From positions 950,104 through 1,014,103 of the forward strand of contig JAEAOA010000822.1 of the NCBI GenBank assembly GCA_016746295.1: a stretch of 64,000 nt of DNA, read 5' to 3'. Below are positions 6,113-64,000 of the stretch, in pieces. The translations under genes and the position numbers were made by a program. The notes under the pieces were generated by a model. It did no database searches. It had not been told where the DNA came from and saw nothing but the letters and a program-made list of their open reading frames with translations. Origin of the DNA: Potamilus streckersoni. Taxonomy: Eukaryota. Each line of letters begins with the position of its first letter. Within the stretch, counting starts at the first letter, position 1.

Positions 6113-6277
6113 CAAAAAAAAAATAAGAAAGGACATCAATGTCAAAAAGGATATTATTGCTGACATTCTGGCTGAAAGAGAAGTTATACCTTGCTCTCAC
6201 TATCCAACTATGCAGTCAGGATAAATCTTTGAAATCATTTTGAAAAGTTCTGTCTTCATGCTTGAGAGTATAATACA

Positions 6278-6670
6278 TTCACTCACCAGTTCCAAACACA
6301 ATCACGTTGAAAGTCCACTGCTTGGGGATGTGGGCAAGGGTCAAAATTAGGATACATTCACTCACCAGTTCCAAACACAATCACGTTGAAAGTACACTGC
6401 TTGGGGATGTGGGCAAGGGTCAAAAGTAGGATACATTCACTCACCAGTTCCAAACACAATCATGTTGAAAGTCCACTGCTTGGGAATATGGGCAAGGATC
6501 AAAAGTAGGATACATTCACTCACCAGTTCCAAACACAATCACATTGAAAGTCCACTGCTTGGGGATGTGGGCAAGGGTCAAAAGTAGGATACATTCACTC
6601 ACCAGTTCCAAACACAATCACATTGAAAGTCCACTGCTTGGGGATGTGGGCAAGGGTCAAAAGTAGGACC
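6278..6670. repeat. 78-bp tandem array x5 duplicating the exon R 3' end plus its 5' splice site
   Basis: Each unit, on the minus strand, reads ACTTTTGACCCTTGCCCACATCCCCAAGCAGTGGACTTTCAAyGTGATTGTGTTTGGAACTG|gtgagtgaatgtatcct. The highest-coordinate copy is the real exon end; the four copies in the intron retain GTGAGT. Confidence 0.9.
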
Positions 6671-8286: not shown

Positions 8287-10515
8287 CAGTGGAACCCTGC
8301 TATAACGCGCCCCACATTAACGCGAATTCGGATATAACGCGGTCATAGCATGGCTCCCGAAATTTCGTATATTCATTCACACATGGAAAATTTTTTTAAA
8401 GAAAAGTAAAAAAAAAAAACAAAAACCCCACAAGAAATTAACTTCATTTTGGGCATGAGATTAGTTGTGACTTTTAAAATAATATTTTTGTGGCATGGTT
8501 GCTGAAATTTGAAATTCATTTACGTGTATTTTTATGGGACCGTGAAAATATTTGTTTAACGTACGAGAAATAGTGTGTAAAACATTTATTATAATTTGGT
8601 GGAAGAATTTGCGTATTGCTTTTAATAATAAACGATCGGAACTTAACAATTTATCCAGGTTCTTTAAGTGATTTTGGAGAAGTGATCGTGTATGAATTCT
8701 AAAAAAAAACGATATATATAACGTACGAGAAATAGTGTACAATGCTTGGCTTCTGAAATTTATCAATTTGAACAGGTTGTGGTGAAGCTCCGTATTCTAC
8801 TCCAGAAGAGAAAACTGGTTTCAGTAGGTTTTTGAATTGTTAAGCCAAAGTAAACATTATCGGAAGTGTTACTTATTATGGATCCCTGAGTAAAGCCAGT
8901 AAATCGTCTTTGTGATTGTCTTCCGTAAATTCTGTAGACAGTCGTTGCTCAAACAATAGCCGACATGGGCTTCTTATTTAGCTGGAATCACAGCCACGCC
9001 GCAGACCAAGCGGTGGTTGATACAAGAGTCGCACAATTTAATAAATATCAAAGGACGAAAGCCGCCGACATGTATACTGTGCTTGGCATTGTGGTCAAAT
9101 AACAAACAGTTCAAAGTAAATAATATCCACTTTATTATCTGTAAATTAAAAGGGCTTCAAATTGTACATCCATTTGGCTTAATTTTGTTTTAAATAAAAA
9201 TTGATTCATAACCATTGCAGGCCTTCATTACTTAGTTATCGAGCTTTATCTGTGTACGTTGTTTGCTTATATATAATTTTTTTGTTACTGTTATGGAAAA
9301 GCAAGTTCAAAAACACAAGTCGTTTTCTGCTAAAGAGAAACTATGCCCTAGATCAACTAAAGAAGGGCAAACAAAAAACTCAGCTTAAAGACGACATACG
9401 TTTAGCAGAAGAAGCACTCAAAAAAATATGAGCACAGACATCATCATATCCTTAACTTGTATTCAGTAGATGACATCTGCCCTATATATGAACACATATC
9501 GATGACGAAATTTTTACAAATGTCAGGAGGAAGAATGAAGCTGCACAATCAAAACCTGAAACCAGTGATGATAACGATGACGATGGCACACCAACTCCCC
9601 CCACCAAAAGTGTCTGAGGCAGTAGTATATTTAGAAGCAAGTTTAAGGTGTCTGGAAACACAAGATGTTGACAGCATCAAAGTCATTTAATCAAGAAACA
9701 CTATTGACTTTGCTAGAACCCAACAGTTCGCGGCAAAGAAGCAAACGTCATTGAATATATTTTTCAAGAAATGATGAAATTTAAATTTGGGACCACACTG
9801 ACTTTGCACTTTGGGCAACGATTAATTTAGCAGTTTTCACATGCTTCTTTTGATGTTCACAAAATCTGAAATAAAAGTTATTTGCACGCTGAAATCATGC
9901 TTTGATTGTTAATTATTCTTGCAGTTGTCGCATATGATAATATTTTAGTGGTATAAAATTTGTACAGACACCATATGTAGACCCAGGAAAAGCTGCATGC
10001 AATGACCGTACGATATCAGACGGCAAGTAAATGGTTTCCATAGTTTGTTCATCCTATATTTTACACGATGAATTCAGACTATTACAAAATTATTGAATAT
10101 TTAAATCTGTACAATTTTCAATGAAATTACATCCATTTTGGATGAACTGTATGCCACGACGGCACGGTAGCATACAGTGTTGATACACTTTTCATGATAT
10201 AGCATAGTCTGGCATTATCGGTCAATCTGTATTATCGTTCAAACAAATAAAAATTAGTAAATGTTTTCAATGCACAGTAATAACCTATAAATATCTTAGC
10301 CATCGATTATTTTGAATATATCTTAATTAATGCAATCCAGTTAATATTCATCTGATGATAAGCAGTCTTTTGATCATTGTACATGTATACACGTACATGT
10401 ATATGTTCTCGGAAAAAAAAGTTAAATATTGTAAACCCCGCATTAACGCGACCCCGCTTTTAACACGATTCAATTTTATGGACCCCGATCATCGTGTTAT
10501 AGCAAGGTTCCACTG
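8287..10515. mobile_element. Non-autonomous TIR DNA transposon, Tc1/mariner-like (TA target-site duplication)
   Basis: The left end CAGTGGAACCCTGCTATAACGCG is matched by the reverse complement of the right end CAGTGGAACCTTGCTATAACACG. Both ends are flanked by TA (8285-8286 and 10516-10517). The interior is CpG-rich, with repeated (t)ataacgcg and gttaaaagcgggg motifs, and has no long ORF resembling a DDE transposase. Confidence 0.65.
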
Positions 10516-13745: not shown

Positions 13746-14164
13746 TAGTTTAAGCAAGATAGCTTATGCCAGTATTGTAGTCAGCACCATCTGCAGCAGT
13801 GGTGGTGGTATTGGTGTTACCTAATGAACACCTTTAAGTTTAAAGTTGTATATGTGTTGGCAAGCTTTTCTGTCATCTGAGAGCTCCATTTTTTATTTTT
13901 CATCTGTCCACCTATCCATTCATGCAAGGTATTGGAGTCTCTGTATCAACTCAAATCTGGATTCCCCTACATGCATCCTTGTATCTGACAGGTATGTACA
14001 ATTTTTACCAGTGATTTGTTATGAAGACAAACATCTTTGCTCCAGGTTGACACACGACCATCAAACATTAAATTTGTCCTTAGTCTGAAGGCTGGCTACA
14101 TATATCACTTTAACATATAGTGATGGGCAGACAGACAGACAGACAGAAAAACATGTAACTTTAC

Positions 14165-14329: not shown

Positions 14330-14479
14330 CTGGAATGTAATACCAATGTGTATCTGCATTAGGATATTGTAATATATTAGCCCTCATTATAAAGGCCCAA
14401 AGTATAATGCTGTTCCTACTTATAACATGGGCATGATTACAGATCTTACTAGTCGAATTTATCATTAATACTTTATTTT

Positions 14480-14536
14480 ACTTTAAGTTCTTGGCTTATT
14501 AGAACCAATTATAAGGTCACCACATCACATCACTCT

Positions 14537-14595
<59 letters not shown>

Positions 14596-19439: not shown

Positions 19440-20880
19440 GTTATGTTCATGGAAGCTAAGAAGACCTTCCTGTCCTAAACTGACTATAAGAAGACCTTCC
19501 TGTCCTGAAATGACTATAACAAGACCTTCCTGTCCTGAACTGACAATAAGAAGACCTTCCTGTCCTAAACTGACTATAAGAAGACCTTCCTGTTCTAACC
19601 TGACTATAAGAAGACCTTGCTGTCCTGAACTGACAATAAGAATACCTTCCTGTCCTGAACTGACTATAAGACCTTCCTGTCTTAAACTGACTATAAGAAG
19701 ACCTTCCTGTCCTGAACTGACAATAAGACCTTCCTGTCCTGAACTGACTATAAGACCTTCCTGTCCTGAACTGACAATAAGAAAACCTTCCTGTCCTGAA
19801 CTGACAATATGAAGACTTTCCACTCCTGAACTGACAATAACAAGACCTTCCTGTACTGAACTGACTATAAGACCAACCTGTCCCTAAACTGACTATAAGA
19901 AGACCTTCCTGTCCTAAACTGACTATAAGAAGACCTTCCTGTCCTGAACTGACAATAAGACCTTCCTGTCCTGAATTGACTATAAGACCTTCATGTCCTG
20001 AACTGACTATAAGACCTTCCTGTCCTAAACTGACAATAAGAAGACCTTCCTGTCCTGAACTGACAATAAGAAGACTTTCCAGTCCCTAAACTGACAATAA
20101 GACGACCTTCCTGTCTTGAACTGACTATTAGACCTTCCTGTCCTAAACTGACTATATGAAGACCTTCCTGTCCTAAACTGACTATAAGAAGACCTTCCTG
20201 TCATGAACTAACAATAAGACCTTTCTGTCCTGAACTGACTATAAGACCTCCCTGTCCTGAACTGACAATAAGAAGACCTTCCTGTCCTGAACTGACAATA
20301 AGACTTTCCAGTCCTGAACTGACAATAAGACCTTCCTGTCCTGAATTGACTATAAGACCTTCCTGTCCTAAACTGACTATAAGAAGACCTTCCTGTCCTG
20401 AACTGACAATAAGACCTTCCTGTCCTGAACTGACTATAAGACCTTCCCGTCCTAAACTGACAATAAGAAGACCTTCCTGTCCTGAACTGACAATAACTAG
20501 ACCTTTCTGTCCTGAACTGACTATAAGACTTCCTGTCCTGAACTGACTATAAGAAGACCTTCCAGTCCTGAACTGACAATAAGAAGACCTTCCTCTCCTG
20601 AACTGACTATAAGACCTTCCTGTCCTGAACTGACTATAAGAAGACCTTCCTGTCCTGAACTGACTATAAGACCTTCCTGTCCTGAACTGACTATAAGAAG
20701 ACCTTCCAGTCCTGAACTGACAATAAGAAGACCTTCCTGTCCTGAACTGACTATAAGACCTTCCTGTCCTGAACTGACTATAAGACCTTCCTGTCCTAAA
20801 CTGACTATAAGAAGACCTTCCTGTCCTGAACTGACTATAAGACCTTCCTGTCCTAAATTGACTGTAATTGGAATGGCAAT
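19440..20880. repeat. 1.4-kb minisatellite, 27-30-bp unit (gaccttcctgtcctgaactgactataagaa) x~50
   Basis: Direct reading; it generates long spurious ORFs on both strands (19401..19823, 19510..19812, 20521..20886). Confidence 0.9.
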
Positions 20881-22479: not shown

Positions 22480-23560
22480 GGACAAGATGGGTATTGAAAG
22501 AAAGGGAAGTACCACCACACACGAGGACATAACCCATGGAGAGGAGTGGTACTAACAGAAGGGAAAGTTTCATGACAAACTTGGACAGAAGAGTGCTATG
22601 AAAAGATGGGGAAGTATCACAACACACAGAGGCAGAACCCATGGACAGGAGTGTTATTGAGAGAGGAAGTAGCACTACACACAGGGGCTAAACCCATGGA
22701 CAGGAGTGTTATTGAGAGAGGAAGTAGCACTACACACAGGGGCTAAACCCATGGACAGGAGTGTTATTGAGAGAGGAAGTAGCACTACACACAGGGGCTA
22801 AACCAATGGACAGGAGTGTTATTGAGAGAGGAAGTAGCACTACACACAGGGGCTAAACCAATGGACAGGAGTGTTATTGAGAGAGGAAGTAGCACTACAC
22901 ACATTGGCTAAACCCATGGACAGGAGTGTTATTGAGAGAAGAAGTATCACTACACACAGGGGCAAAGTTTCTGGACAGGAGTGGTATTGAAATAAGGGGA
23001 AGTATCACCGCACACAGGGACAGACCCGATGGACAGGGGTGGTATTGAAATAAGGGGATGTATCACCGCACACAGGGACAGATCTGATGGACAGGAGCAG
23101 TATTGAAATAAGGGGAAGTATCACCGCACACTGGGACAGATCCGATGGACAGGAGTGGTATCGAAATAAGGGGAAGTATCACCGCACACAGGGACAGATC
23201 CGATGGACAGGAGTGGTATTGAAATAAGGGGAAGTATCACCGCACACAGGGACAGATCCGATGGACAGGAGTGGTATTGAAATAACGGGAAGTATCACTG
23301 CACAGAGGGACAGATCCGATGGACAGGATTGGTATTGAAATAAGGGGAAGTATCACAGCACACAGAGACAGATCTGATGCCAGGAGTGGTATTGAAATAA
23401 GGGGAAGTATCACCGCACACAGGGACAGATCCGATGGACAGGAGTGGTATTGAAATAACGGGAAGTATCACCGCACACAGGGACAGATCTGATGGACAGG
23501 AGTGGTATTGAAATAAGGGGAAGTATCACCGCACACAGGGATAGGTCTGAGTGGTATTGA
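22480..23560. repeat. ~58-60-bp minisatellite x~18, two subfamilies
   Basis: Units atggacaggagtgttattgagagaggaagtagcactacacacaggggctaaaccc (22640-22960) and gatggacaggagtggtattgaaataaggggaagtatcaccgcacacagggacagatcc (22960-23560). Confidence 0.9.
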
Positions 23561-28230: not shown

Positions 28231-28232
<2 letters not shown>

Positions 28233-28317
<85 letters not shown>

Positions 28318-43129: not shown

Positions 43130-46100
43130 ATACCTAATAATACCATGATCTGTTAGCACACAATCGGTCTATGATATTTGCTCTCAGAGTAAAGTATATC
43201 ATGATCTATCAGAGCATTATAAGTCTATGCTGTTTGCTCTCAGAGTAATGTATACTATGATCTGTTAGTACATAATGGGTCTATGCTGTTTGCTCTCAGA
43301 GTGGATATGTAGACAGCTTGCAAGTAGCTTCTTCTGGGGGTTTCCCGTGTTCTTCCTCCACAATTAATACTGTCTGCCATGTATAGCCTATCATGTGCTG
43401 GAAAATGGCATTAAACCATACAACATCAACATCATTGCTCTCAGAGTAATGTATACCATGATCTATTCACAATTGATGTGTATTTGTTTGTGCTGTTTGT
43501 TCTCAGATTAATGTATAATGTGATCTATTAGCACATGATGGATTCTCTCATTAGAGAGCAAAATGGGTCAATTTTGTTTGCTATTAGTGTAATGTATACC
43601 ATGACTTGTTGGCACATAATGGGTCTATGCAGTTTGGTCTCAGAGTAATGTATACCATGATCTGTTAGCACATAATGAGTCTAAACAATTTGGTCTCAGA
43701 ATAAAGTATACCATGATCTGTTAGTACATAATGATTCTATGCAGTTTGGTCTCAGAATAATGTATACCATGATTTGTTAGCACATAATGGGTCTATGCAG
43801 TTTGGTCTCAGTGTAATGTATACCATGATCTGTTAGCACATATTGGTTCTATGCAGTTTGGTCTCAGAGTAATGGATACCATGATCTGTTAGCACATAAT
43901 GGGTCTATGCAGTTTGGTCTCAGAATAATGTATACCATGATCTGTTAGTACATAATGATTCTATGCAGTTTGGTCTCAGAATAATGTATACCATGATTTG
44001 TTAGCACATAATGGGTCTATGCAGTTTGGTCTCAGATTAATGTATACCATGATCTGTTTTTACATAATGGGTCTATGCAGTTTGGTCTCAGATTAATGTA
44101 TACCATGATCTGTTTTTACATAATGAGTCTATGCAGTTTGGTCTCAGAGTAATGTGTACCATGATCTGTTAGCACATAATGGGTCTATGCAGTTTGGTCT
44201 CAGAATAATGTATACCATGATCTGTTAGCACATAATGGGTCTATGCAGTTTGGTCTCAGAATAATGTATACCATGATTTGTTAGTACATAATGATTCTAT
44301 GCAGTTTGGTCTCAGATTAATGTATACCATGATCTGTTTTTACATAATGAGTCTATGCAGTTTGGTCTCAGAGTAATGTGTACCATGATATGTTAGCACA
44401 TAATGGGTCTATGCAGTTTGGTCTCAGAATAATGTATACCATGATCTGTTAGCACATAATTGGTCTATGCAGTTTGGTCTCAGATTAATGTATACCATGA
44501 TCTGTTTTTACATAATGAGTCTATGCAGTTTGGTCTCAGATTAATGTATACCATGATCTGTTAGCACATAATTGGTCTATGCAGTTTGGTCTCAGATTAA
44601 TGTATACTATGATCTGTTTTTACATAATGAGTCTATGCAGTTTGGTCTCAGAGTAATGTGTACCATGATCTGTTAGCACATAATGGGTCTATGCAGTTTG
44701 GTCTCAGAATAATGTATACCATGATCTGTTAGCACATAATGGGTCTATGCAGTTTGGTCTCAGAATAATGTATACCATGACTTGTTGGTACATAATGAGT
44801 CTATGCAGTTTGGTCTCAGAGTAATGTATACCATGATTTGTTAGCACATAATGGGTCTATGCAGTTTGGTCTCAGAATAATGTATACCATGATTTGTTAG
44901 CACATAATGAGTCTATGCAGTTTGGTCTCAGAATAATGTATACCATGATCTGTTAGTACATAATGATTCTATGCAGTTTGGTCTCAGAATAATGTATACC
45001 ATGATTTGTTAGCACATAATGGGTCTATGCAGTTTGGTCTCAGATTAATGTATACCATGATCTGTTTTTACATAATTGGTCTATGCAGTTTGGTCTCAGA
45101 TTAATGTATACTATGATCTTTTTTTACATAATGAGTCTATGCAGTTTGGTCTCAGAGTAATGTGTACCATGATCTGTTAGCACATAATGGGTCTATGCAG
45201 TTTGGTCTCAGAATAATGTATACCATGATTTGTTAGCACATGTGTCTATGCAGTTTGGTCTCAGAATAATGTATACCTTGATTTGTTAGTACATAATGAT
45301 TCTATGCAGTTTGGTCTCAGAATAATGTATACCATGATCTGTTAGCACATAATGGGTCTATGCAGTTTGGTCTCAGAATAATGTATACCATGATCTGTTA
45401 GCACATAATGGGTCTATGCAGTTTGGTCTCAGAATAATGTATACCATGATCTGTTAGTACATAATGATTCTATGCAGTTTGGTCTCAGAATAATGTATAC
45501 CATGATTTGTTAGCACATAATGGGTCTATGCAGTTTGGTCTCAGATTAATGTATACCATGATCTGTTTTTACATAATGGGTCTATGCAGTTTGGTCTCAG
45601 ATTAATGTATACCATGATCTGTTTTTACATAATGAGTCTATGCAGTTTGGTCTCAGAGTAATGTGTACCATGATCTGTTAGCACATAATGGGTCTATGCA
45701 GTTTGGTCTCAGAATAATGTATACCATGATTTGTTAGCACGTGTCTATGCAGTTTGGTCTCAGAATAATGTATACCATGATTTGTTAGTACATAATGATT
45801 CTATGCAGTTTGGTCTCAGAATAATGTATACCATGATTTGTTAGCACATAATGTGTCTATGCAGTTTGGTCTCAGATTAATGTATACTATGATCTGTTTT
45901 TACATAATGAGTCTATGCAGTTTGGTCTCAGAATAATGTATACCATGATTTGTTAGTACATAATGATTCTATGCAGTTTGGTCTCAGAATAATGTATACC
46001 ATGATCTGTTAGCACATAATGGGTCTATGCAGTTTGGTCTCAGAATAATGTATACCATGATCTGTTAGCACATAATGGGTCTATGCAGTTTGGTCTCAGA

Positions 46101-47470
46101 ATAATGTATACCATGATCTGTTAGTACATAATGATTCTATGCAGTTTGGTCTCAGAATAATGTGTACCATGATTTGTTAGCACATAATGGGTCTATGCAG
46201 TTTGGTCTCAGATTAATGCATACCATGATCTGTTTTTCCATAATTGGTCTATGCAGTTTGGTCTCAGATTAATGTATACCATGATCTGTTTTTACATAAT
46301 GAGTCTATGCAGTTTGGTCTCAGAGTAATGTGTACCATGATCTGTTAGCACATAATGTGTCTATGCAGTTTGGTCTCAGAATAATGTATACCATGACCTG
46401 TTTTTACATAATTGGTCTATGCAGTTTGGTCTCAGATTAATGTATACCATGATCTGTTAGTACATAATGATTCTATGCAGTTTGGTCTCAGAATAATGTA
46501 TACCATGATCTGTTTTTACATAATGAGTCTATGCAGTTTGGTCTCAGAATAATGTATACCATGACCTGTTAGCACATAATGATTCTATGCAGTTTGGTCT
46601 CAGAATAATGTATACCATGATCTGTTAGTACATAATGGGTCTATGCAGTTTGGTCTCAGAATAATGTATACCATGATTTGTTAGTACATAATGATTCTAT
46701 GCAGTTTGGTCTCAGAATAATGTATACCATGATCAGTTAGCACATAATGGGTCTATGCAGTTTGGTCTCAGAATAATGTATACCATGACCTGTTAGCACA
46801 TAATGAGTCTATGCAGTTTGGTCTCAGAATAATGTATACCATGATCTGTTAGTACATAATGATTCTATGCAGTTTGGTCTCAGAATAATGTGTACCATGA
46901 TTTGTTAGCACATAATGGGTCTATGCAGTTTGGTCTCAGAATAATGTATACCATGATCTGTTAGCACATAATGGGTCTATGCAGTTTGGCCTCAGAATAA
47001 TGTATACCATGACTTGTTGGTACATAATGAGTCTATGCAGTTTGGTCTCAGAGTAATGTATACCATGATTTGTTAGCACATAATGGGTCTATGCAGTTTG
47101 GTCTCAGATTAATGCATACCATGATCTGTTTTTACATAATTGGTCTATGCAGTTTGGTCTCAGATTAATGTATACCATGATCTGTTTTTACATAATGAGT
47201 CTATGCAGTTTGGTCTCAGAGTAATGTGTACCATGATCTGTTAGCACATAATGTGTCTATGCAGTTTGGTCTCAGAATAATGTATACCATGACCTGTTTT
47301 TACATAATTGGTCTATGCAGTTTGGTCTCAGATTAATGTATACCATGATCTGTTAGTACATAATGATTCTATGCAGTTTGGTCTCAGAATAATGTATACC
47401 ATGACCTGTTAGCACATAATGAGTCTATGCAGTTTGGTCTCAGAATAATGTATACCATGATCTGTTAACT
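43130..47470. repeat. 4.3-kb satellite, 56-bp unit x~75 (gtctatgcagtttggtctcagaataatgtataccatgatctgttagcacataatgg)
   Basis: Direct reading; it is interrupted once by the SINE-B fragment at 43297-43440. Recurrent variant units (gtttttacataat, ttagtacataatgatt) suggest a higher-order structure. Confidence 0.95.
43297..43440 (+). mobile_element. SINE family B, 5'-truncated copy embedded in the 56-bp satellite
   Basis: gagtggatatgtagacagcttgcaagtagcttcttctggggg...ccacaattaatactgtctgccatgtatagcctatcatgtgctgg..., interrupting the satellite. Confidence 0.65.
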
Positions 47471-49735: not shown

Positions 49736-49856
49736 ACAAAACATATGCTATTTATGAATTGTGTTATCTCTAATTATTTAGTTTTGTTCTAGATAATACG
49801 ATTACACCTTAAACATATTCTGAATTTACCTTAAACATGGCATACTTTGAATTTAC

Positions 49857-50002
49857 CTTAAACATAGCATATTTTGCTATCTGGTAATTTTCCTCATCAA
49901 AGACTGGACAGTCTTTTTCTCCAAAGGTCCATTTTTTCACATTTTTCACATTAAATTGAGACCTGACTTTCTGTTTCTTCTCCTGTCTCTGTTGTCTTGA
50001 GG
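49857..50002 (-). CDS. PARP4: PARP4-like exon C (BRCT-to-PARP linker)
   Basis: Translation (A)SRQQRQEKKQKVRSQFNVKNVKKWTFGEKDCPVFDEENYQIAKYAMFK; the ENYQIAKYAMFK segment aligns to human QDFEVAKYNTLEK. Acceptor ttacttttcag, donor AAG|gtaaat. Phase 1 in, matching exon B. A duplicated in-frame donor lies 27 nt further on, at 49830. Confidence 0.7.
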
Positions 50003-50059: not shown

Positions 50060-50470
50060 TGCTAATTGTCAAGACTAGATTTTGTGGTACATCCTCTTCT
50101 TGTTAACTTACTTAACTCTAGGTTCTGTAGTACACTCTATATCCAGTCAACTCCCTTGTACTGTCGATTGTGTGGTATACCATATTCAACTCAACTTGCT
50201 TGTAATGTAGACTGTGTGGTACACCTTATTCTAATCAACTTACTTGTACTGTCGCTTGTCTAGCAGACCCAATTCTAGTCAGCTCACTTGTACTGTAGAT
50301 TATCTGGTACACCTTAATCCAGTCAACTCACTTGTACTGTAGACTGTGTGGCAAAACCTATTCCTCCCATCAACTCATTTGTACTGTAAATTGTGTGGTA
50401 CACCCTATTCTAATCAACTTATTTGTAATGTAGATTTGTGTGACACACCCTATTCTAGTCAACTAACTGG
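50060..50470. repeat. 44-bp satellite block 1 (ccagtcaacttacttgtactgtagattgtgtggtacaccctatt)
   Basis: The same unit is found at 51370-51660 and 53470-55990. Confidence 0.9.
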
Positions 50471-51369
50471 TCTTACGAGTCTTTGCTATTAAAATAAGTA
50501 ACAGAAATGAGTGAAAGACATCAAGCATTGTAAAATTTAACAAATATATTTATTTCAAAAGAATACAACGTGAAAATGAGAAAAACAATCTTACGAATCA
50601 AATCCCAAAACAGTATTACAAATTAAATCCCAAAATAGTCCAAAAATTACAGACAAGTCTTAATAATTTAAAGTCCTGAATAAAATTCAGTAAAAGTCCC
50701 AAAAGATCCAAAACTGAAGGTGATGATGTATCTGTAATAGCTTATATAATGCTGATGTGTCAACAGACTTTTGTTTAATCACAGTTAATATATTTCCAGG
50801 TTTTAATATACAATAAATTCCAGTGAATGTCTTTATCTATGAGTTTTATCTAAGCACTATTGTCTTCCCAAAGAAAATAATCACTTAAATTCAATAATTT
50901 CAAGAAAATAAAATTTAGTGTAACTGGTCACAACATAATAAAACTTGAAAGTACTAGATATTAAAGTTCAAATAACCAAGTCATCACAATTACAAGATAA
51001 GATAGTTCTCTACTTGACCTCATGTAAAAATCAGCATTTTCTAAAAATAAAATATGATCTAATGGAAAATAATTTTTAGAATGATGTAATGAGCCTTGAT
51101 TACTTACAACATGATCACCTGTAAAATTCACTTAAGAAATTCCAAAAACCTGACCCCAAAAAACACATTTACTCATTCTTGTCTACCTGAATATTAATCC
51201 TAATATTAAGCTCATACACATAGAGAATAATTTAGCTATGTATTAGTTGCTTACATAAAATGAAATATAAAATAATAAATACAATTAAATCAGGTCAAGC
51301 AGAAATGAATTCAATTTTGGACAAGTTCAAGTCTAACATATAATGTTACATTACAATAGCATGGAATGA

Positions 51370-51660
51370 CCTAATTTTTAAAACTCAACTCACTTGTACT
51401 GTAGATTGTGTGGTACACCCTAATCAAGTAAACTTACTTGTACTGTAGATCATGTGGTACACCCTATTCCAGTCAACTTACTTGTACTGTAGATTGTGTG
51501 GTACACCCTACTCCAGTCAACTTACTTGTAATATAGATTGTGTGGTACACCCTATTCCAGTCTACTTGTACTGTGTGTGGTAACACCCTAATCTAGTCAA
51601 CTTACTTGTACTGTAGATTGTGCAGCACAACCAATTCCAGTCAACTTACCTGTACTGTAT
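51370..51660. repeat. 44-bp satellite block 2
   Basis: Ends exactly at the left TA of the TIR element. Confidence 0.9.
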
Positions 51661-51661
51661 A

Positions 51662-53468
51662 CACCACTCTCTCGATAACTCGTGGACATTGGGGTCCAAA
51701 AACATCGACCGCGATATAAGCGAGGGCGCGAGTTATCGAGGGACCTATAACAACAAAACTAACAAAGGGATCGATGTATAGGCAAAAGGGGGTGGGGTTG
51801 GCTTGGCATGTTACAATGTTGAATACTCAATAAACGTGCTAAGATTAACAGTGAATAAATATCTCTTCATATCGGTATATATTATTTTTTTTCCTCAGAG
51901 TAACATTAATTTCAGGATAACTTGAAGTATATTGATCATCAAACATTATTCCACTTGGTTTTCATTCGCTTAGCACATGTACGACTTCACGTTTTGACCG
52001 CAGATTTGAATCACCCACGCATGCATGCCCCCAGTTATACCACGTGACCACGCAGTCGCATAAATGTTATTATTTTGGAATTATTATTCTTAAGATAGTT
52101 ATTGGTAAAAACGTAGTAGTATCGCAAATAGAAATATCAGTACATGAACGATGGCTAACTTTCGAAATTCGCGGAGCTAGTCGACTAAAAAAACAACGAG
52201 CAAAGATTACTTTGATGCGTTACGAAGATTTCAAGGTGTCTAGGTGATGATTGTTCATAATATACTTTGTGGGATTTCTTTGACATGTTTGTTCGGAAAT
52301 CAAAGGTATCCATCTGGGTTTCATTAAAGGAGCCCGCTAGGTACCGATCATTTAGCACCCACATTTAATAGTTATCGTCTACAAAGAGGTTTATTACTCG
52401 TAGAACAAAGGTTTTAACCTTGGAATATAATGCCTCGGGGATAACGGTTGGTCCGGTTGCACAATGCCAATGAATTTTATTAATCAAAACAGATGGCCTG
52501 ACGTATTGTTTATTTATATTAAGCAGCGATCTGGTTTCTTATTATAGCCATAGCTGTCACACCTGTTTGAAGTGGTTGGCCAGTGTGTCGATTTTTTTTT
52601 TTTTACAGGTACCCGCGTTTACTTTTCAATATCCGGGTTTTTTTATACCGGTTTACCCGATGACAGCCCTAGATACCTTACTGATATTATATACTTTAAT
52701 GATGTTAATACATAAAATGTGAAAACATTTTCGATTGGTGAAGTAAAATTAAATTTGATAACGGTAACGAATACGAGAACATAGGCTCCTAAAGGCATGC
52801 CTTTGAACTTTCTTTTATTGTACTTACCAGGTTTGATTTGATGCAAAATACATATTCTAAAACAACACCGGTCTCTTTTACTTGATTCTTTTATTGTAAC
52901 AAACACTTCCCACGCTGTTGATCAAAACAAAGTCAGCATGTAATTAGGTTCCCACTGAAGTACTCTCGGTTTTGATGTGACGGTTGACTGACTCTTTTCC
53001 TGCCTTCATCTAAGAGAATAGGTATGTTGCGATTATGGAGTTGAGACAAAATTAAAGGCTTATAATGTGAATTTCACCTAGCCAGATATTTAATTAGTGT
53101 CTATTTCATTCTAGGTTGCTGCATGTTAGCAATTTACCAGAGTTTTTCATTGAGCACTGTTTATTTACAATTTACAGTGTATTAACAACTATTTCTCTAT
53201 TAAAAAAAACAATATGTGATATCTTTTTAGAAATTGCAAATTTCACAATATGGATTCTATCTTTACGGGCAATAATCACCATTTTCAATGATAAAAACAA
53301 GTTATGTATCAAAGTTTAATTTACCAATTTACCATTTCTTATCACATTTTCACTGTTCAACACATTTTAAAATATATTTGCTTTGAAAAAAAATCGGGAG
53401 CCATGCCGGACACCGCGTTATAAGCGGGTTCGGGAGTTATCCGGGCGCGAGTTATCGAGGGAGTGGTG
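51662..53468. mobile_element. Non-autonomous TIR DNA transposon (TA target-site duplication) inserted into the 44-bp satellite
   Basis: Termini CACCACTCTCTCGATAACTCG and the reverse complement of the right end CACCACTCCCTCGATAACTCG, flanked by TA on both sides. Subterminal gcgcgagttatcgaggga motifs occur at both ends. The interior is CpG-rich (cgcgat, ccgcg, tcgac), which is atypical for the locus, and has no long ORF. The satellite continues on both sides. Confidence 0.6.
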
Positions 53469-53469
53469 T

Positions 53470-55990
53470 ATTGTGTGGTACAACCTATTCCAGTCAACTC
53501 ACTTTTACTGTAGTTTGTGTGGTACACCCCATTCCAATCAACACACTTAAAAAGTAAATTGTGTGGTACACCCTTCTCTAGTCAACCTACTTGTACTGTA
53601 GCTTGTGTGGTACACCCTATTCTAGTCAACTTACCTGTAATGTAGATTGTGTGTTACACCCTATTCTAGTTAACCTACCTGTACTGTAGATTGTGTGGTA
53701 CACCCTATTCTAGTCAACTTACTTGTACTGTATATTATGTGGTACACCCTTCTCTAGTCAACTCACTTGGACTGTAGATTGTATGGTACACCCTATTCCA
53801 GTCAACTTATTTGTGCTGTAGATTGTGTGGTACACCCTATTCCAGTCAACTTACTTGTACTGTATATTGTGTGGTACACCCTTCTCTAGTCAACTCACTT
53901 GGACTGTAGATTCTGTGATACTCCATTTTTCAGTCAACTTACTTGTACTGTAGATTGTGTAGTACATATATTCCAGTTAACTTACATGTATTGTAGATTG
54001 TGTGGTACACCCTATTCCAGTCTACTTGTACTGTGTGTGGTACACATTAATCTAGTCAACTTAATTGTACTGTAGATTGTGCAGCACAACCAATTCCAGT
54101 CAACTTACCTGTACTGTATATTGAGTGGTACACCCTACTCCAGTCAACTTACCTGTACTATATATTGTGTGGTACACCCTACTCCAGTCAACTTACTTGT
54201 ACTGTATATTGTGTGATACACCCTATTCCAATCAACACACTTAAAAAGTAAATTGTGGTGTACACCCTTCTCTAGTCAACTTACTTGTACTGTAGCTTGT
54301 GTGGTACAGCCTATTCTAGTCAACTTACCTGTAATGTAGATTGTGTATTACACCCTATTCTAGTTAACCACCTGTACTGTAGATTCTGAGGTACACCCTA
54401 TTCTAGTCAACTTACTTGTACTGTATATTGTGTGGTACACCCTTCTCTAGTCAACTCACTTGGACTGTAGATTGTGTGGTACACCCTATTCCAGTCAACT
54501 TATTTGTGCTGTAGATTGTGTGGTACACCCTATTCCAGTCAATTTACTTGTACTGTATATTGTGTGGTACACCCTTCTCTAGTCAACTCACTTGGAATGT
54601 TGATTGTGTGGTACACCATTTTTCAGTCAACTTACTTGTACTGTAGATTGTGTAGTACACCATATTCCAGTCAACTTACTTGTACTGAAGATTGTGTGGT
54701 ACACCCTATTCCAGTCAACTCACTTGTACTGTACATTGTGTAGTACACCATTCTATAGTCAACTTACTTGAACTGTAGATTATGTGGTACAACCTATTCC
54801 AGTCATCTTACTTGTACTGTAAATTGTGTGGTACACCCTACTCCAGTCAACTTACTTGTACTGTAGATTGTGTGGTACACCCTATTCCAGTCAACTCACT
54901 TGGACTGTAGATTGTGTGGTACACCATTTTTCAGTCAACTTTTTTGTACAGTAGATTGTGTAGTACACCATATTCCAGTCAACTTACTTGTACTGAAGAT
55001 TGTGCGGTACACCCTATTCCAGTCAACTCACTTGTACTGTAGATTGTGTAGTACATCCTTCTCTAGTCAACTCACTTGAACTGTAGATTATATGGTACAA
55101 CCTATTCCAGACAAATTACTTGTACTGTAAATTGTGTGGTACACCCTACTCCAGCCAACTTACTTGTACTGTAGATTGTGTGGTACACCCTATTCCAGTC
55201 AACTCAAAAAGTAAATTGTGTGGTACACCCTACTCCAATCAACTTACTTTGTACTGTATATTGTGTGGTACACCCTATTCTTGTCAAATTACTTGTACTG
55301 TATATTGTGTGGAACACCCTACTCCAGTCAACCCACCTAAACTATAAATTGTGTGGTTCACCCTATTCTAGTCAACTTACTTGTACAGTATATTGTGGTA
55401 CATCCTCTTCTAGTCAACTTACCTGTACTGTAGATTGTGTTACACCCTCTTCTAGTCAACTTACCGGTACTGTAGATTATGTGGGACACCTTATTCCAGT
55501 AAACATACTTGTACCGTATATTGTGTGGTACACAATTCTCTAGTCAACTCACTTGGAATGTAGATTTTGTGGTAGATCCTATGCTAGTCAACTAACTTGT
55601 ACTGTATATCGTGTGGTATACCCTTCTCTAATCAACTCATTTGCACTGTAGATTGTGTGATACACCGTATTCTAGTCACCTCACTTGTAATGTAGATTAC
55701 ACCTGTTCCAGTCAACTTACTTGTACTGTAGGTTGTGTGATGCATCCGATTCTAGTCAACCTAATTGTACTGTAGATTGAGTGGAACACCCTATATCCAG
55801 TCAACTCACTTGAACTGTAAATTGTGTGGTACAGCCTATTCCAGTCAACTAACTTGTACTGTAGATTGTGTGGTACATCCTACCATTAGGTACTGTAGGC
55901 TGTGTGGTCCACCCTATCCTAGTCAACTGCTTGACACTGTAGATTATGTGGTACACTATATTCAACTCTTTAGCACTGCTGATTGTGTGG
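53470..55990. repeat. 44-bp satellite block 3 (2.5 kb)
   Basis: Starts exactly at the right TA of the TIR element; it produces the spurious cysteine-rich ORFs 54474..56055. Confidence 0.9.
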
Positions 55991-56088
55991 CACACCCTAT
56001 TCTACTGAACTCTTTCTTAGTATCCAAGAATTTAATTTTCTTGCAATATTTATGAAATTCTAAAAATCTATGATGCACACTAACTTAC

Positions 56089-57429: not shown

Positions 57430-58880
57430 GGGTGATGCCTAGAATTCAAGTATTGTCAAGTATACATGTGATACCTAATATTTTTCAAGTGATGTCTAGT
57501 ATTCAAGTGATGTCTAGTATTCAAGTGATGTCTAATAGTATTCAAGTGATGTCTAGTATTCAAGTGATGTCAAGTATTCAAGTGATGTCTAATAGTATTC
57601 AAGTGATGTCTAATAGTATTCAAGTGATGTCTAATAGTATTCAAGTGATGTCAATTATTCAAGTGATGTCTAATAGTATTCAAGTGATGTCTAATAGTAT
57701 TCAAGTGATGTCTAATAGTATTCAAGTGATGTCTAATAGTATTCAAGTGATGTCAATTATTCAAGTGATGTGTAGTATTCAAGTGATGCCAGTTTCAAGT
57801 GATGTGTAGTATTCAAGTGATGCCTAGTATTCAAGAGATGTCTAATAGTATTCAAGTGATATCTAGTATTCAAGTGATGTCTAATAGTATTCAAGTGTCT
57901 AATAGTATTCAAGTGATGTCTAATAGTATTCAAGTGATGTCAATTATTCAAGTGATGTTTAGTATTCAAGTGATGCATAGTATTCAAGTGATGTGTAGTA
58001 TTCAAATGATGCCTAGTATTCAAGTGATGTCTAGTATTCAAGTGATGTGTAGTATTCAAGTGATGTGTAGTATTCAAATGATGCCTAGTATTCAAGTGAT
58101 GTCTAATAGTATTCAAGTGATGTCTAGTATTCAAGTGATGTCTAGTATTCAAGTGAAGTCTAATAGTATTCAAGTGATGTCTAGTATTCAAGTAATGTCT
58201 AATAGTATTCAAGTGATGTCTAATAGTATTCAAGTGATATTCAAGTGATATCTAATAGTATTCAAGTGATGTCTAATAGTATTCAAGTGATGTCTAATAG
58301 TATTCAATTGATGCCTAATAGTATTCAAGTGATGTCTAATAGTATTCAAGTGATGTCTAGTATTCAAGTGATGTCTAATAGTATTCAATTGATGCCTAAT
58401 AGTATTCAAATGATGCCTAATAGTATTCAAGTGATGTCTAATAGTATTCAATTGATGCCTAATAGTATTCAAGTGATGTCTAATAGTATTCAAGTGATGC
58501 CTAATAGTATTCAAGTGATGTCTAATAGTATTCAATTGATGCCTAATAGTATTCAAGTGATGCCTAATAGTATTCAAATGATGCCTAATAGTATTCAAAT
58601 GATGCCTAATAGTATTCAATTGATGCCTAATAGTATTCAAGTGATGTCTAATAGTATTCAAGTGATGCCTAATAGTATTCAAGTGATGTCTAATAGTATT
58701 CAATTGATGCCTAATAGTATTCAAGTGATGTCTAATAGTATTCAATTGATGCCTAATAGTATTCAATTGATGCCTAATAGTATTCAAGTGATGCCTAATA
58801 GTATTCAAATGATGCCTAATAGTATTCAATTGATGCCTAGTATTCAAGTGAATCCTGATATTCATCTGATGCCAAGTATT
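57430..58880. repeat. 1.45-kb minisatellite, 21/24-bp unit (tattcaagtgatgtctaatag) x~65
   Basis: Direct reading; it produces 125-212-aa spurious ORFs on both strands. Confidence 0.95.
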
Positions 58881-59044: not shown

Positions 59045-59183
59045 CTTCTTTGTAACAATGAAGGACACTATCCCACCATGGCTGGTGATTGCTTTCCTTA
59101 AGTTAGTTTTCTCGGAGAAAGACATGTTCATTGACAAGTCCAATGCAAATTGACAGTTTGCAAAAACTGCAGGCAAGGGGGTC
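59045..59183 (-). CDS. PARP4: PARP4-like exon A (BRCT N-terminal part)
   Basis: Minus-strand translation TPLPAVFANCQFALDLSMNMSFSEKTNLRKAITSHGGIVSFIVTKK aligns to human PARP4 residues ~5-45 (GIFANCIFCLKV...GGKFSFSLNPQ). Acceptor ctatttcag at 59184-59186; an alternative strong acceptor cccccttgcctgcag would give the upper limit 59166. Donor AAG|gtaata. No in-frame ATG is present, so the start codon must lie in an upstream exon. Confidence 0.6.
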
Positions 59184-59339
59184 CTGAAATAGTATTGAAA
59201 GGTAAGGCACAGAAAAATCTAGTTCTGACAATGAATAATATTCATACCTGTTAATTATGAGACACACCAAATTACAAAGCTGTACAAAAAGCTTTTTTAA
59301 TTCCTTGAGTTCAGGAATCTATTGAAACAGCTATTTTAA

Positions 59340-59995
59340 TCAAAGCATGTGAATAATACAAGAACTTAAAAGCCAATACTTCATTGCTGTACACATCAAT
59401 GTTCTGTCATCTATGTAAAGGCTCACTATAATAGTCAATGCACAATACAATGATCCCTCATGTAATGGTCGGTCATCATATAATGGTCTTTCACTATAAT
59501 CATCCCTCACTATGCAATGGTCCCTCACTATAATTGCTACTCAATAATGGTCTCTCAATATATAATGGTCCTTCACTATTATAAATCCCTCACCATGTAA
59601 TGGTCCCTCACTATATAATAGTCTTTCACTATCATGGTCCCTCACTATATAATTGTCTTTCACTATAATCATCCCTCACTATGCAATGGTGGTGGTTGTT
59701 GTTGTTCTTGTTGTGGGGCTTAACACCATTTCTCAGCACATGATAGGCTATACATGGCGGCCAGTATTAATGGTGGAGGAAAAACCTGGGAAATCCACAG
59801 AAAGAACCACTGACCCACGAGAAGCTACTAGCAAGCTTTCTCACATATCCACATTCACCGAATCTTAAACTCGAACCCACACAGACAGAGGTGACTTGGC
59901 TGTGATCCAAAATGGACAGCGCCACTCAGGGCCCCTTATGCAATGGTACCTCACTATGATTGCTATTGTATAATGGTCCTTCAATATAATTCTAC
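59340..59995. repeat. 22-bp minisatellite (taatggtccctcactatataa) split by the SINE-B insertion
   Basis: The array occupies 59340-59688 and 59936-59995, on either side of the SINE. Confidence 0.85.
59689..59935 (-). mobile_element. SINE family B copy inserted into the 22-bp minisatellite
   Basis: Reverse-complement match to family B. The flanking direct repeat ~tatgcaatggt sits on both sides, inside the minisatellite. Confidence 0.8.
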
Positions 59996-61079
59996 TTGAA
60001 CTTCCAAGTTCATTTTAATTCATTATAATGTCATTTCACATAACTAATAAAAAGTAGATAGTCCTACACATGGTATCCCTGTAGTTCCTTGTTTTGACCT
60101 CCACCCCTCAATGCCAACATTTGAGCCTACTGGCTGAGAACCTTTTTAAGGGCAAATATCAGATGGGTGTTTGCATTTGTTTTCATGCTCTATAATTATA
60201 CAAATGGCTACATGGTGTAGATCTCAATAGTTTCCAAGTAAAAACAGGGGCTTAGTCCCTTGTGAGTTAAGAATGGACCCCTGGACAAATATTAGTTGCA
60301 TTATAATCTGTTTTTCCTTTCCAATAACCATACATGTATGATTATAGGGTAGCGATCTCAATAGTTTCCAATTTACAACCCAAAGAACAAACCCTGGTTT
60401 AATGCCTGTTTCATGTATTCCAGAGGTTTCGGAAATGCTTGCTCATGCATATTTGGATACCAATTTTTTTATCAGGGACACAGGAAATCATTTAGGTGGG
60501 AGTTCTCCATACTCATATAATGGATGGGTGACAAAATTCAAAGACTTTCCTGTCCTGCTTCAGCCACCTGCTTGGTTGGAAAATGAGTTGATTAATTACC
60601 TGTGCTGATATTTACAATGACAGAAAGACCTGTTTATGTACATGTCATTATAGGAGTACATCAAAAGAACATGATGCAATAGCTTGGTGGCTTGTTTAAA
60701 GACTCCGATAGGCATATTGGTGGGACAATTCTTCAATCAAGCAAACACTCAGACATGAGAGGCATTCAACTCTGGAGTTATCTAAAATTTTGTAAAATCA
60801 CCAAATACTCTTGCCAAAGCAGCGTAACAATTCCTGACAATCTACACTCATATGACTTTCACTTACACTATTTTCATGTGTCTAGTAGTATGGGAATTTA
60901 ATACATATGGACTGTATAACTATCTCCATGTGCTTCAGTAAAAGAGCTAATAACCAAAATAGTGTTGATTAATACTGGTAATTGAATTTATGACATGAAA
61001 AAATATTTGTTGTCACATTGCATGTTTACCAATAATTATAATTATAACCTGTACTATGCTTATTTATTATTATAGTAAA

Positions 61080-61320
61080 GAACTTCTGATATTTCATTTA
61101 CTTACCCTGTGTTATCCTTGTTCAACAATTATCTTATTCTGTGTTACCCTTGTTCAGCAATTACCCACACTGTGTAACCATTCTTTAAAGATTACCTACC
61201 CTATGTTACCCTTGTTCAGCAATTACCTATCCAGTGTTACCCTTGTTAAACAATTACCTATCCTGTGTTACCCTTGTTCAACAATTACCTACCTTGTGTT
61301 ACCCTTGTTCAAGCTCTTTG
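61080..61320. repeat. 33-bp tandem array x7, each unit carrying a 5' splice-site-like motif
   Basis: The minus-strand unit is gataggtaattgttgaacaagggtaacacag. AACAAGG|GTAACA is the same motif that ends the SGIK ORF at 61303. Confidence 0.85.
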
Positions 61321-61909
61321 GATTAATCTTGATCTTGTCCTGATTGAGTTTGCCAGCTGCATCTAATCCTATAGCATCAAGCACACATCCACCTGTGGTG
61401 ATATTCATTTTGCTGCTAAGAGGGGCAAGACCCTTCCTTGGATGCATGCTAACAGCATGCGAGTCGGAATCACTTTTCTCAATGCCAAGGTGTGCACCAC
61501 CTAATCCACTCATCAGGTTTTGATGATCATCCTTCAAACCACTTGCTGTACTGTAATGACTGCTGGTCAAACTACTGACAATGCTAGATTTAATACCACT
61601 CTTACTGGTGAAATGATCCAGATGTGGAGTGGCTGTCACTTTAATTCCACTCATACTGATGGTATTGCTAGAAAGGAGACTACTTTCCCCAGCAATAAGA
61701 CTATGCAGCAACTTGCTGGCAAGGTTGCCATCAATTAAACCCCCACTCAAGTTGGTACATTGTTTGACTGCCTTGTTGATGCCAGTTGTGCCCAAATTTG
61801 CCTTCAACTGATCAGAAGAACTGACATCTGTGCACATTTTACTAGCGCACAAATTTGTCAATGTTCTCTTTCCATCAACATGTATACCAAGCCTGCTTCT
61901 GTCAGCCAT
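61303..61909 (-). CDS. Ser/Gly-rich SGIK-repeat ORF: candidate 5' coding exon (N-terminal extension of the PARP4-like gene) or a separate gene
   Basis: A 636-nt open frame on the minus strand (ATG at 61907-61909): MADRSRLGIHVDGKRT...SMSGIKVTA...SKSGIKSSI...GGCVLDAIGLDAAGKLNQDKIKINPKSLNKG. The region is unusually long and GC-richer than its AT-rich surroundings. It ends at a plausible donor AAGG|gtaaca in phase 1, which is compatible with the alternative acceptor of exon A at 59166. A related ORF with the same SGIK motif, in another frame, lies at 61950-62144. I see no homology to a known family. Confidence 0.3.
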
Positions 61910-64000
61910 ATTAGACTTGATCACAGTTCCAAGATTTTCTGAGCTTTTATTATTTTTGTCCAGAGATCAATTTCTGCTGTGAAAGCTTAATACCACTGAG
62001 AGTGTTTGTGCCACCAATTAAAGAACTCAAACTAGGGTTTGTCTTCTCCAGGTTTTGACTACCATTGCTAATAAAGATATTTGTCAAAGTCTTTGAATCA
62101 GACGAAGGAACTCCTGGACTGAATTGACCAATATATTTCATCAAGGTGACGTAGTCTTTGTTTACATCAACTGGATCCCTTTTGGTTATTTATTTTTAAA
62201 AAGCCTTCAAAATACTGTCATACACTTGTATACCTTCTGAATTGAATTGATGTATCTTGCCTGAAATATAAAATACATTAAGTGGTTGATCAATTTAATC
62301 TGTTTTTCTATATTAAAATGTGTATTAGCTTAAATATAAAACAAATTCAGGTGGTTAATCAATTTGATGTTTATAGATTATGATAATGGATCAAATGGGA
62401 CTTACATTCCAATTAATTCAGTAAAACTCACATGATTCCTGACAAATTTAAAAACTAATTTTAGCTTTAAAATTTAATAATAACATAGTTATAACAAAGT
62501 TTATTCAATCATGATTTTTTAGTGAACTGCACATTAATTGTCATAACATAAGTTCCAGATGAAAATTATCGATCACTAATGACTTTTACAATGGAAGAAT
62601 GGGTCAAGAAAATTGACATTGGAATTAGCTATTACCTACCAGTGCAGGGGGAATCAAGGTAGTCAAGAGCAGTTTTATTCATCTCCTGTATGGGTTTTCA
62701 AATATGAATGATATAGAGGAATAATATACAGTAAGTTTTATTCTTAACTTTTACATTCAACATTTCTTCACAATTATAATTTAGTATGATGTAAAAGGTA
62801 ACTAAAACAATGTGAATTAACAGCCATGTCTTTACTATTTTTAACATGCAAGAAGGAACATATCTGCATGGGAAAACGTTTAATGGGGACACCCCCATTA
62901 ACTTCACTGTACCTACAAATGTCAAAGTACATTATCATTGAATTTGGTATTAAGTATGTTTTGATTATACAATAATCTTCTAAAGAATTTTGATGGACAA
63001 GTTGTGAAATAAAGTAAATAAATGCCATTTAAAGGTATGTCAAACCAAATTCTCCAAAACAACACTTATAGCTTAATCAATGACTCAGTGCATGTATATG
63101 AGTCATGAAAGTTGTATGATAAACATAGGAACTCATACGAGGATTCAGTTACTAAGCAGAGGATCTTACACAAATCCTCAATTCAAATAAAATTTAGGGA
63201 AAAAAGTTTGAACAATTTCTGTCTGGTGAGATTTGCAATGTAATCCAAAATTTACGAAAAAATATCATAGATGAGATGGCTTCAAATTTTGATGTTCAAA
63301 CCGACCTGAGATTGAATTACATTTTCAAATGTATTAAAAATCAATTGATACACATTTTCTACATTCCACTACTAATGATATAGCAGAGGTCCCTTTCTAG
63401 CACTAAGTGCAAACATGGGTGTTAAAAGTGGTAGATAATGTCATGTAAAAACAAAATGCATTGGCAGAATCCTGCATTTACAATTCAAAAAAAAAAGAAA
63501 CGGGATTTCTCAGACTGTTATAATTTGAAGGTAACTTTCAAACTTGTTACAAAATATTTTTCTCCACCACTCTTTATTATTTTCAAAGCAGAGAACAAAC
63601 ATACAATAACTAAATTAAATAATCTTTAGTTCCATGTAGAAATTCTGGATCATGATTGTCTTTCAACTATAAATTCAGTTATGTGAACTGACGTTTGTTA
63701 ATATCAATAAACTGTGATGCAAATCAATTACAAAAGCCTATACAAATTTAATCAAAAAAAAAATTTAATGGAGAATTAGAAGAACATTATTGTTCCTGCG
63801 TAAACACTAATTGCTGTAGTGCTGGTTCTCAAAACATAATTCCATATCAATATAATTGATTACATAGGCTAGACTGGCTGAGAAAAGGAGCAAACACCAA
63901 CCAGATCATCAATTCCATGCATAGACAAGAACTACTAATAACCTTACCATAAAACATAATCCCCAGATTGTAAAATACTGATCACAGTGACTGATGGTTA

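Follow-up and report, generated by a model that had tools for sequence, protein, structure and literature searches.

[quoted passage not shown] This locus raises the question of what such an array is: whether it belongs to a real exon, which of its many donor-like sites serves splicing, and whether the repetition has a function or is a by-product of mutation. We analyzed it within a 64-kb window, by which we mean the whole stretch of DNA studied here. The evidence presented below makes it likely that the array is a junction-spanning minisatellite of a PARP4-like gene, a tandem duplication across an exon-intron boundary that is nearly neutral.

An exhaustive phmmer search with the exon-1 frame against 1.84 billion representative proteins returned exactly one match, a 2363-residue protein of Potamilus streckersoni, a unionid freshwater mussel (KAK3593675.1 / UniRef100_A0AAE0SKK7, named 'Poly [ADP-ribose] polymerase' in UniProt). 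Identity is 100% across the first 203 residues of the match, which correspond to the query from the ATG at 61909 through to its last residue. Pfam domains on this protein (P0121) are BRCT at 211-290, PARP_reg at 502-574, PARP at 607-783, VIT at 851-963 and VWA at 1099-1255, and this predicted order of BRCT, PARP regulatory and catalytic domains, VIT and vWA is the architecture of PARP4, the vault PARP. Residues 1-1229 of KAK3593675.1 map to the minus strand of the window at about 100% identity in 21 exons, and for each of the 20 introns there is only one canonical GT-AG placement that yields the protein. The 64-kb window is almost wholly occupied by this one gene, and scans of the 64 kb gave no Rfam and no tRNA matches.

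Coding exon 1, which we call the SGIK ORF, lies at 61909-61293 on the minus strand (ATG at 61909-61907; 205 codons and 2 nt, ending in phase 2) and is 100% identical to residues 1-206 of KAK3593675.1. It is followed by intron 1 at 59184-61292 (2109 nt, placed by the GT-AG junction solution) and by exon 2 at 59045-59183, where the BRCT domain starts. Since exon 2 has no ATG of its own, an upstream coding exon is needed. The public annotation of Potamilus streckersoni was made with Funannotate/EVM from RNA-seq, protein and ab initio evidence (PMC7937423).

The tandem array reported in our preliminary description at the end of the SGIK ORF is indeed there, on the minus strand. TRF reports it at 61098-61312 with a period of 31, 6.9 copies, 80% matches and a score of 274, and on the minus strand it parses into seven head-to-tail units spanning 61095-61312, six of 31 nt and one of 32 nt. 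The period had been given as 33 bp; the unit string quoted for it was itself 31 nt long. Each unit is composed of 20 nt of the exon-1 tail (TTGAACAAGGGTAACACAAG) and 11 nt of the intron-1 head (GTAGGTAATTG). Unit 1 (61312-61282), which reads TTGAACAAGGGTAACACAAG GTAGGTAATTG, is the true exon 1/intron 1 junction and overlaps the last part of the long open frame on the minus strand. It is followed by unit 2 (61281-61251, ending in CACAGG ATAGGTAATTG), unit 3 (61250-61220), unit 4 (61219-61189), unit 5 (61188-61158), the 32-nt unit 6 (61157-61126) and the last unit, unit 7 (61125-61095, ending in CACAGG GTAAGTAAATG), so the first 198 nt of intron 1 are array. According to an identity matrix the units are pairwise 68-94% identical with one 1-nt indel, and AACAAGGGTAACA is present exactly in five of the seven. 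A 26-nt core of the unit has five matches at three or fewer mismatches in the 64-kb window, all within the array, and none in 100 shuffles.

Each unit contains two GT motifs, which we scored by the energy of the duplex with U1 and with a position weight matrix (PWM) derived from the donors of this gene. The productive 5' splice site, which reproduces the annotated protein, is AAG|GTAGGT at 61287-61295 on the minus strand, with the last exon base at 61293. It ranks at the 99.3rd percentile of 3806 GT sites by PWM, has a U1 duplex energy of -11.9 kcal/mol and is the strongest donor of the array. The second motif of unit 1, AGG|GTAACA at 61297-61305 (last exon base 61303), is moderate, with a PWM score of 6.6 and a U1 duplex of -5.9 kcal/mol. 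We had earlier taken this second motif for the donor and 61303 for the end of the open frame. The frame in fact extends from 61966 as far as the TAG at 61291-61289, and the junction that reproduces the protein is 61293|61292; use of the weaker site at 61303 loses 10 nt, shifts the frame and leads to a stop at codon 221. The idea of an array built from an exon-end and 5' splice site module was correct, and the module sits at a real coding exon, with the donor placed 10 nt off.

Further into the intron are two strong pseudo-donors, AGG|GTAGGT of unit 4 at 61194-61202 (last exon base 61200; PWM 7.1, U1 -11.3 kcal/mol) and AGG|GTAAGT of unit 7 at 61100-61108 (last exon base 61106; PWM 8.6, U1 -11.6 kcal/mol), both on the minus strand. 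Besides these two, the array holds five copies of AGG|GTAACA and four of TAG|GTAAT[T/C], giving three strong and about nine moderate sites resembling 5' splice sites in 215 nt. The in-frame TAG at 61289-61291 overlaps the productive donor (AG|G TAG GT) and terminates the open frame if this first donor is skipped, and all donors downstream of 61293 run into it at codon 207. Only 61293 among the exon-1 donors therefore preserves the reading frame. From the behavior of the human F7 gene described below, the intact open frame and the gene model, we infer that 61293 is the donor used in vivo. The G at +1 of the main donor is mutated in three of the six downstream copies (units 2, 3 and 6). We considered this loss as a possible sign of selection; two of the three changes are common by descent, and six copies are too small a sample to bear on this. 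The idea that RNA structure masks the pseudo-donors was unsupported, as the RNA of the array is not significantly structured (z = -0.79).

The array at exon 1 (E1) had been described as the third of its kind in the window, and we arrive at the same count. At exon 19 (6789-6603), a 79-bp unit is repeated five times at 6272-6666 on the minus strand, each unit consisting of 63 nt of the exon-19 tail, which encodes part of the vWA domain, and 16 nt of the intron head. These E19 units are 92-100% alike, and units 1 and 2 are identical across the whole 79 nt. The result is a row of five CTG|GTGAGT donors, at 6603 (the authentic one), 6524, 6445, 6366 and 6287, which are identical from -20 to +12; use of any donor but 6603 leads to a stop at codon 1145. 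At exon 4 (50002-49857), a 27-bp unit of 20 nt of exon-4 tail and GTAAATT is present in about 2.7 copies at 49796-49876 on the minus strand, with donors at 49857 (authentic), 49830 (which adds 27 nt in frame, or 9 residues) and 49809. Productive tandem alternative 5' splice sites can be rejected as a general explanation, since the E1 and E19 alternatives lead to stops and only the second E4 copy is in frame. The units at E1, E4 and E19 share a common architecture and no common sequence.

The three arrays were recovered independently of TRF by comparing a 32-nt probe of each junction with the adjacent 1.5 kb of intron. Junction copies were found at the E1, E4 and E19 donors and at none of the other 18 donors or the 20 acceptors. 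We also considered a 44-bp repeat family of intron 3 (50076-56007; its unit contains AAGTAAGT) as a decayed junction array of the exon-3 donor. This was rejected because the family is separated from the E3 donor by about 80 nt of unrelated sequence, and candidate copies of the E3 junction all fall short of 22 matches in 32.

Minisatellites are abundant in this window, where G+C content is 27-41% per 2-kb block and mostly near one third. TRF gave 78 rows, and arrays with a period of at least 10 number 44 after merging and cover 26% of the window, nearly all of them in introns. Examples are the arrays at 43590-47467 (56 bp x69), 53470-55882 (44 bp x55), 57432-58851 (21/42 bp x72), 19457-20867 (30 bp x49) and 22608-23541 (58 bp x16), and the 44-bp family occupies three places within intron 3 (50076-50468, 51385-51659 and 53470-56007). 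Two simple repeats lie close to other donors: (ATT)28 on the gene strand at 28232-28317 begins 8 nt past the E11 donor (28325), and (TCTG)5 at 14128-14147 begins 18 nt past the E16 donor (14165).

Few exonic bases fall inside arrays (106 of 3689), and these belong exclusively to the donor ends of E1, E4 and E19. In this window arrays straddle three of 21 donors and none of 20 acceptors. To see what chance would give, the same arrays were dropped at random, tolerating an overlap of at most 66 exonic bases; in this null model a mean of 0.88 donors and 0.87 acceptors were straddled, with P(>=3 donors) = 0.057 and P(>=3 donors and 0 acceptors) = 0.022. The excess at donors alone is mild and is unpredicted by a purely neutral, symmetric model. 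Clustering at donors in one gene is thus suggestive and not compelling.

A wider view comes from PARP4 orthologues on five host contigs of other invertebrates (L001-L005, including ENA ERZ25069853 and ERZ25071447), on which we obtained 65 exon matches. These contigs are distant from the mussel and cover the middle of the gene only, the closest relatives being 79-89% identical in the conserved VIT exon. They contain four more junction arrays, three of them on the acceptor side, at 9669-10099, 14342-14576 and 17587-17753 of L004 and at 17742-17925 of L005. In the array at L004 9669-10099, a 143-bp unit, which joins 43 nt of intron tail (CAG included) to 100 nt of the head of the VIT exon, is present three times, and the last copy is the real exon; an 81-bp unit in 2.3 copies is also among the acceptor-side arrays. 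Junction arrays are confined neither to donors nor to Potamilus streckersoni. The introns of these orthologues also contain retrotransposon ORFs (L001 12787-17277 and L005 12864-14531), of the Pao/BEL type with DUF1759 and an aspartic protease and of the RVT_1 type with an endonuclease domain.

The array belongs to a known class, that of junction-spanning minisatellites ('mirages' or F7-IVS7-type VNTRs): its unit falls in the range of 10-160 bp and is repeated head to tail in at least two copies, its terminal monomer lies across the exon-intron boundary and the splice-site consensus is reiterated downstream. The closest parallel is intron 7 of human F7, in which the first monomer of a 37-bp VNTR lies across the exon-intron boundary and 5-9 pseudo-donors are reiterated behind it (Borensztajn et al. 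2006, PLoS Genet, PMC1557585). Minigene mutagenesis showed that these pseudo-donors are functional yet silent and that the most upstream site alone gives normal mRNA; even improved pseudo-sites with a consensus value of up to 91 were uncompetitive, while a pseudo-site rescued splicing once the authentic donor was mutated (PMC1557585). The mussel array resembles this VNTR in its junction-spanning first monomer and has a similar unit size (31 vs 37 bp) and copy number. The two differ in that the F7 monomer has 4 exonic and 33 intronic nt whereas the E1 unit has 20 and 11, and in that the F7 pseudo-sites match the authentic site exactly, whereas most of the E1 copies have drifted. Donor choice comes from minigene mutagenesis in F7, a mammalian gene, and from analogy and the gene model in the mussel, a bivalve with three junction arrays in one gene.

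Other human minisatellites that reiterate donors are the 31-bp VNTR of CBS at exon 13-intron 13 and those of IFI6 (6-16) intron 2, LMNB2 and PDGFA intron 4. The first two pseudo-sites of CBS and of IFI6 are spliced as well and give extra transcripts, while LMNB2 and PDGFA rely on the authentic donor alone (PMC1557585). The period of 31 bp shared by CBS and the E1 array is a coincidence and the two have no sequence relationship. In amphioxus, 'mirages' affect several genes and were described in Adh3, the globins BflGb6/9, TnC and PGBD5, with units of 10-160 bp and identities of 81-100% (PMC3087553, PMC3902484). Their AG/GT signals are kept and normal splicing is reportedly undisturbed (PMC3087553; PMC3902484), and the Adh3 mirages, as relayed in PMC3087553 and PMC3902484 from Canestro et al. 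2002 (NAR 30:2871), show instability and length polymorphism. Like these, the mussel arrays are tandem boundary duplications of comparable unit identity in a minisatellite-rich invertebrate genome. Amphioxus, a cephalochordate, differs in that both 5' and 3' boundaries are duplicated, while the mussel window has such duplications at donors only (3/21 vs 0/20). Our literature search found 'mirages' in this sense for amphioxus only and no report for molluscs. A related idea is the gain of introns by tandem duplication of an exon segment containing AGGT, discussed in PMC3087553. It likewise involves a duplication that includes splice signals, by which exon-derived sequence becomes intronic; the mussel copies, unlike such a gain, lengthen the 5' end of an existing intron and create no new one. 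The additions made here are modest, namely the occurrence in a bivalve, a single gene with three arrays, and E19 with its five identical donors.

A simple history probably accounts for the E1 array. A 31-bp segment across the exon 1/intron 1 boundary would have been duplicated in tandem and expanded to seven copies, presumably by replication slippage or unequal exchange in a minisatellite-prone genome. Splicing at the most upstream donor, 61293, would discard all extra copies with the intron and leave the mRNA unchanged. Because the extra copies are all downstream of the authentic donor, such a duplication would be nearly neutral and could persist and decay. Selection would remove those arrays that disrupt exons, as the near absence of exonic bases from arrays may reflect. 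The graded identity of the units, 92-100% at E19, intermediate at E4 and 68-94% at E1, fits three independent events of different ages. Besides the mild excess at donors, a further finding goes against this neutral reading: the pseudo-donors at 61200 and 61106 are about as strong as the authentic donor at 61293. In cis-competition in other experimental systems, intron-proximal sites can win. The exon map on which the neutral reading builds is based on a gene model from an automated pipeline (Funannotate/EVM; PMC7937423).

The alternative that survives best, unlikely as we consider it, is that the array is functional. It could be a cluster of U1 snRNP sites that helps exon 1 to be recognized, keeps premature cleavage and polyadenylation in check or supplies back-up donors, or it could serve regulated unproductive splicing that tunes PARP4 output. 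The dense series of strong and moderate 5' splice site-like sequences would suit the former, and the immediate stops reached from all alternative donors of E1 and E19 are what is expected of an unproductive-splicing switch. The second copy at E4 would insert nine residues in frame, and one gene has three arrays at donors and none at acceptors. The partial use of pseudo-sites in IFI6 and CBS and the F7 pseudo-site that rescues a mutated authentic donor (PMC1557585) are precedents for activity, and a study of the CBS VNTR associates allele length with reduced enzyme activity, going by its title as cited (Lievers 2001). Against a function, the copies decay freely, with E1 units only 68-94% alike and half of the downstream copies devoid of the main-donor G+1. 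The three arrays are alike in architecture only, as local accidents arising independently would produce, and their excess at donors is weak (P about 0.02-0.06). In orthologues elsewhere such arrays also occur on the acceptor side, and minisatellites make up 26% of the window regardless. Nothing in these data points to a functional rather than a mutational role. The suggestion in the preliminary description of a locus-wide or lineage-specific pattern, mutational or functional, is a fair reading as far as mutation is concerned; a function is unsupported, and acceptor arrays occur in other taxa. The pattern is a known and probably neutral by-product of a minisatellite-rich genome.

A second alternative, slightly less probable than a function, is that exon 1 is an annotation artifact, an ab initio extension into an ORF that is decayed or due to chance. 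In that case we would be dealing with an ordinary minisatellite of the 5' flanking or untranslated region, whose likeness to donors would be incidental. The N-terminal 206 residues are indeed an orphan: phmmer against the 1.84 billion representative proteins found no homolog other than KAK3593675.1 itself, so the support for exon 1 is intrinsic throughout. Exon 1 has no Pfam domain, a single sub-threshold match being disregarded. A word-indexed protein search with the peptide of exon 1 and that of exons 1-3 found nothing, even missing KAK3593675.1, which is in the same collection, and its empty result therefore cannot be read as absence for such eukaryotic proteins. In the contig collection, exact look-ups found no record of P0121 or of the exon-1 ORF, whether begun at GTG or at ATG, so the exact ORF is absent from recorded gene calls, and L002 and L004 have no homologous exon upstream of exon 2, all of which would fit an artifact. 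The sequence is rich in S and G and apparently of low complexity, and an upstream ORF that encodes a similar peptide in a different frame could indicate decay.

We nevertheless regard exon 1 as probably a real coding exon, judging by its composition and its fit to the gene. Codon usage was scored as a log-likelihood ratio between the codon usage of exons 2-21 and intron trinucleotides, and in its own frame exon 1 reaches +0.228 bits/codon (other frames -0.36 and -0.51), within the 0.05 to 0.52 bits/codon of the other exons in the same test. None of 3000 random 615-nt intron segments reaches this score, their maximum being 0.062. An open frame of 226 codons is expected by chance 0.0012 times per window, and the G+C content of exon 1 is 43%, as in other exons, against a background of 33%. 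Around the ATG, positions -3 and +4 are A and G, respectively, and the exon ends at the strongest donor of the region, in the only phase compatible with the ATG-less exon 2. Even if exon 1 were an artifact, the E4 and E19 arrays would still be at donors of exons that have homologs in other species.

The 206 residues that precede the BRCT domain appear to be a lineage-specific, S/G-rich N-terminal extension. In human PARP4 the BRCT domain is N-terminal. The recurring SGIK peptide motif has no internal DNA repeats as its source beyond 14-17-mers at chance level. The upstream ORF at 61950-62144 on the minus strand (ATG at 62141), which encodes an SGIK-like peptide as in exon 1 in a different frame, is weakly coding-like at +0.087 bits/codon. 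Deletion of one A from the A5 run at 61953-61957 would fuse it to exon 1 without a stop, giving 283 codons; the difference in frame is due either to a true frameshift or to a homopolymer error of the PacBio-based assembly. In the latter case the N-terminus of the protein would be 77 residues longer than annotated.

Two last alternatives are both highly improbable. One is a dispersed, transposon-borne satellite inserted beside the exon by chance, of the Helentron/MITE type that has spread many short arrays in bivalve genomes such as those of oysters and clams (PMC7492417 and PMC3879986) and of which the several families found at more than one place in the window, such as the 44-bp family at 50076-56007, are reminiscent; the E1 unit, however, includes 20 nt of coding exon, unit 1 is the exon end itself, the 31-bp monomer is found in this array only within the 64-kb window, and the E4 and E19 arrays likewise derive from their own exon tails. 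The other is an artifact of an assembly from PacBio long reads and 10X data (PMC7937423), with junction copies collapsed or expanded by the long-read assembler, to which the probable homopolymer frameshift 650 nt upstream and the 100% identity of E19 units 1 and 2 might point, but the E1 units differ at many positions (68-94% identity and one 1-nt indel), beyond what an assembler would invent. The copy number, known from one haplotype, may be erroneous or polymorphic, whereas the array as such is real.

Taken alone, the E1 array, a well-formed instance of a mutational by-product already known, is of little import. It is of practical consequence for the annotation of minisatellite-rich mollusc genomes, in which such arrays offer gene predictors and aligners several equivalent donors, and the exon ends next to them merit checking. 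Our own initial error of 10 nt in placing the donor illustrates this trap. As a more speculative notion, to which we give little credence, junction arrays of unionids may be systematically enriched at donors, compared with acceptors and with random placement, and kept by selection as reserve donors, U1-recruiting clusters or unproductive-splicing switches of variable copy number that tune the expression of genes like PARP4. If this were true, the three donors and no acceptors together with the five identical E19 donors would be the tip of a lineage-wide splicing feature. The locus also offers a natural experiment on how 5' splice sites are chosen outside the vertebrates, with five donors at E19 of which only the first is productive, a graded decay series at E1 and an in-frame alternative at E4. 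Such a series may prove useful for examining, in a protostome, the rule of human F7 that the most upstream site wins.
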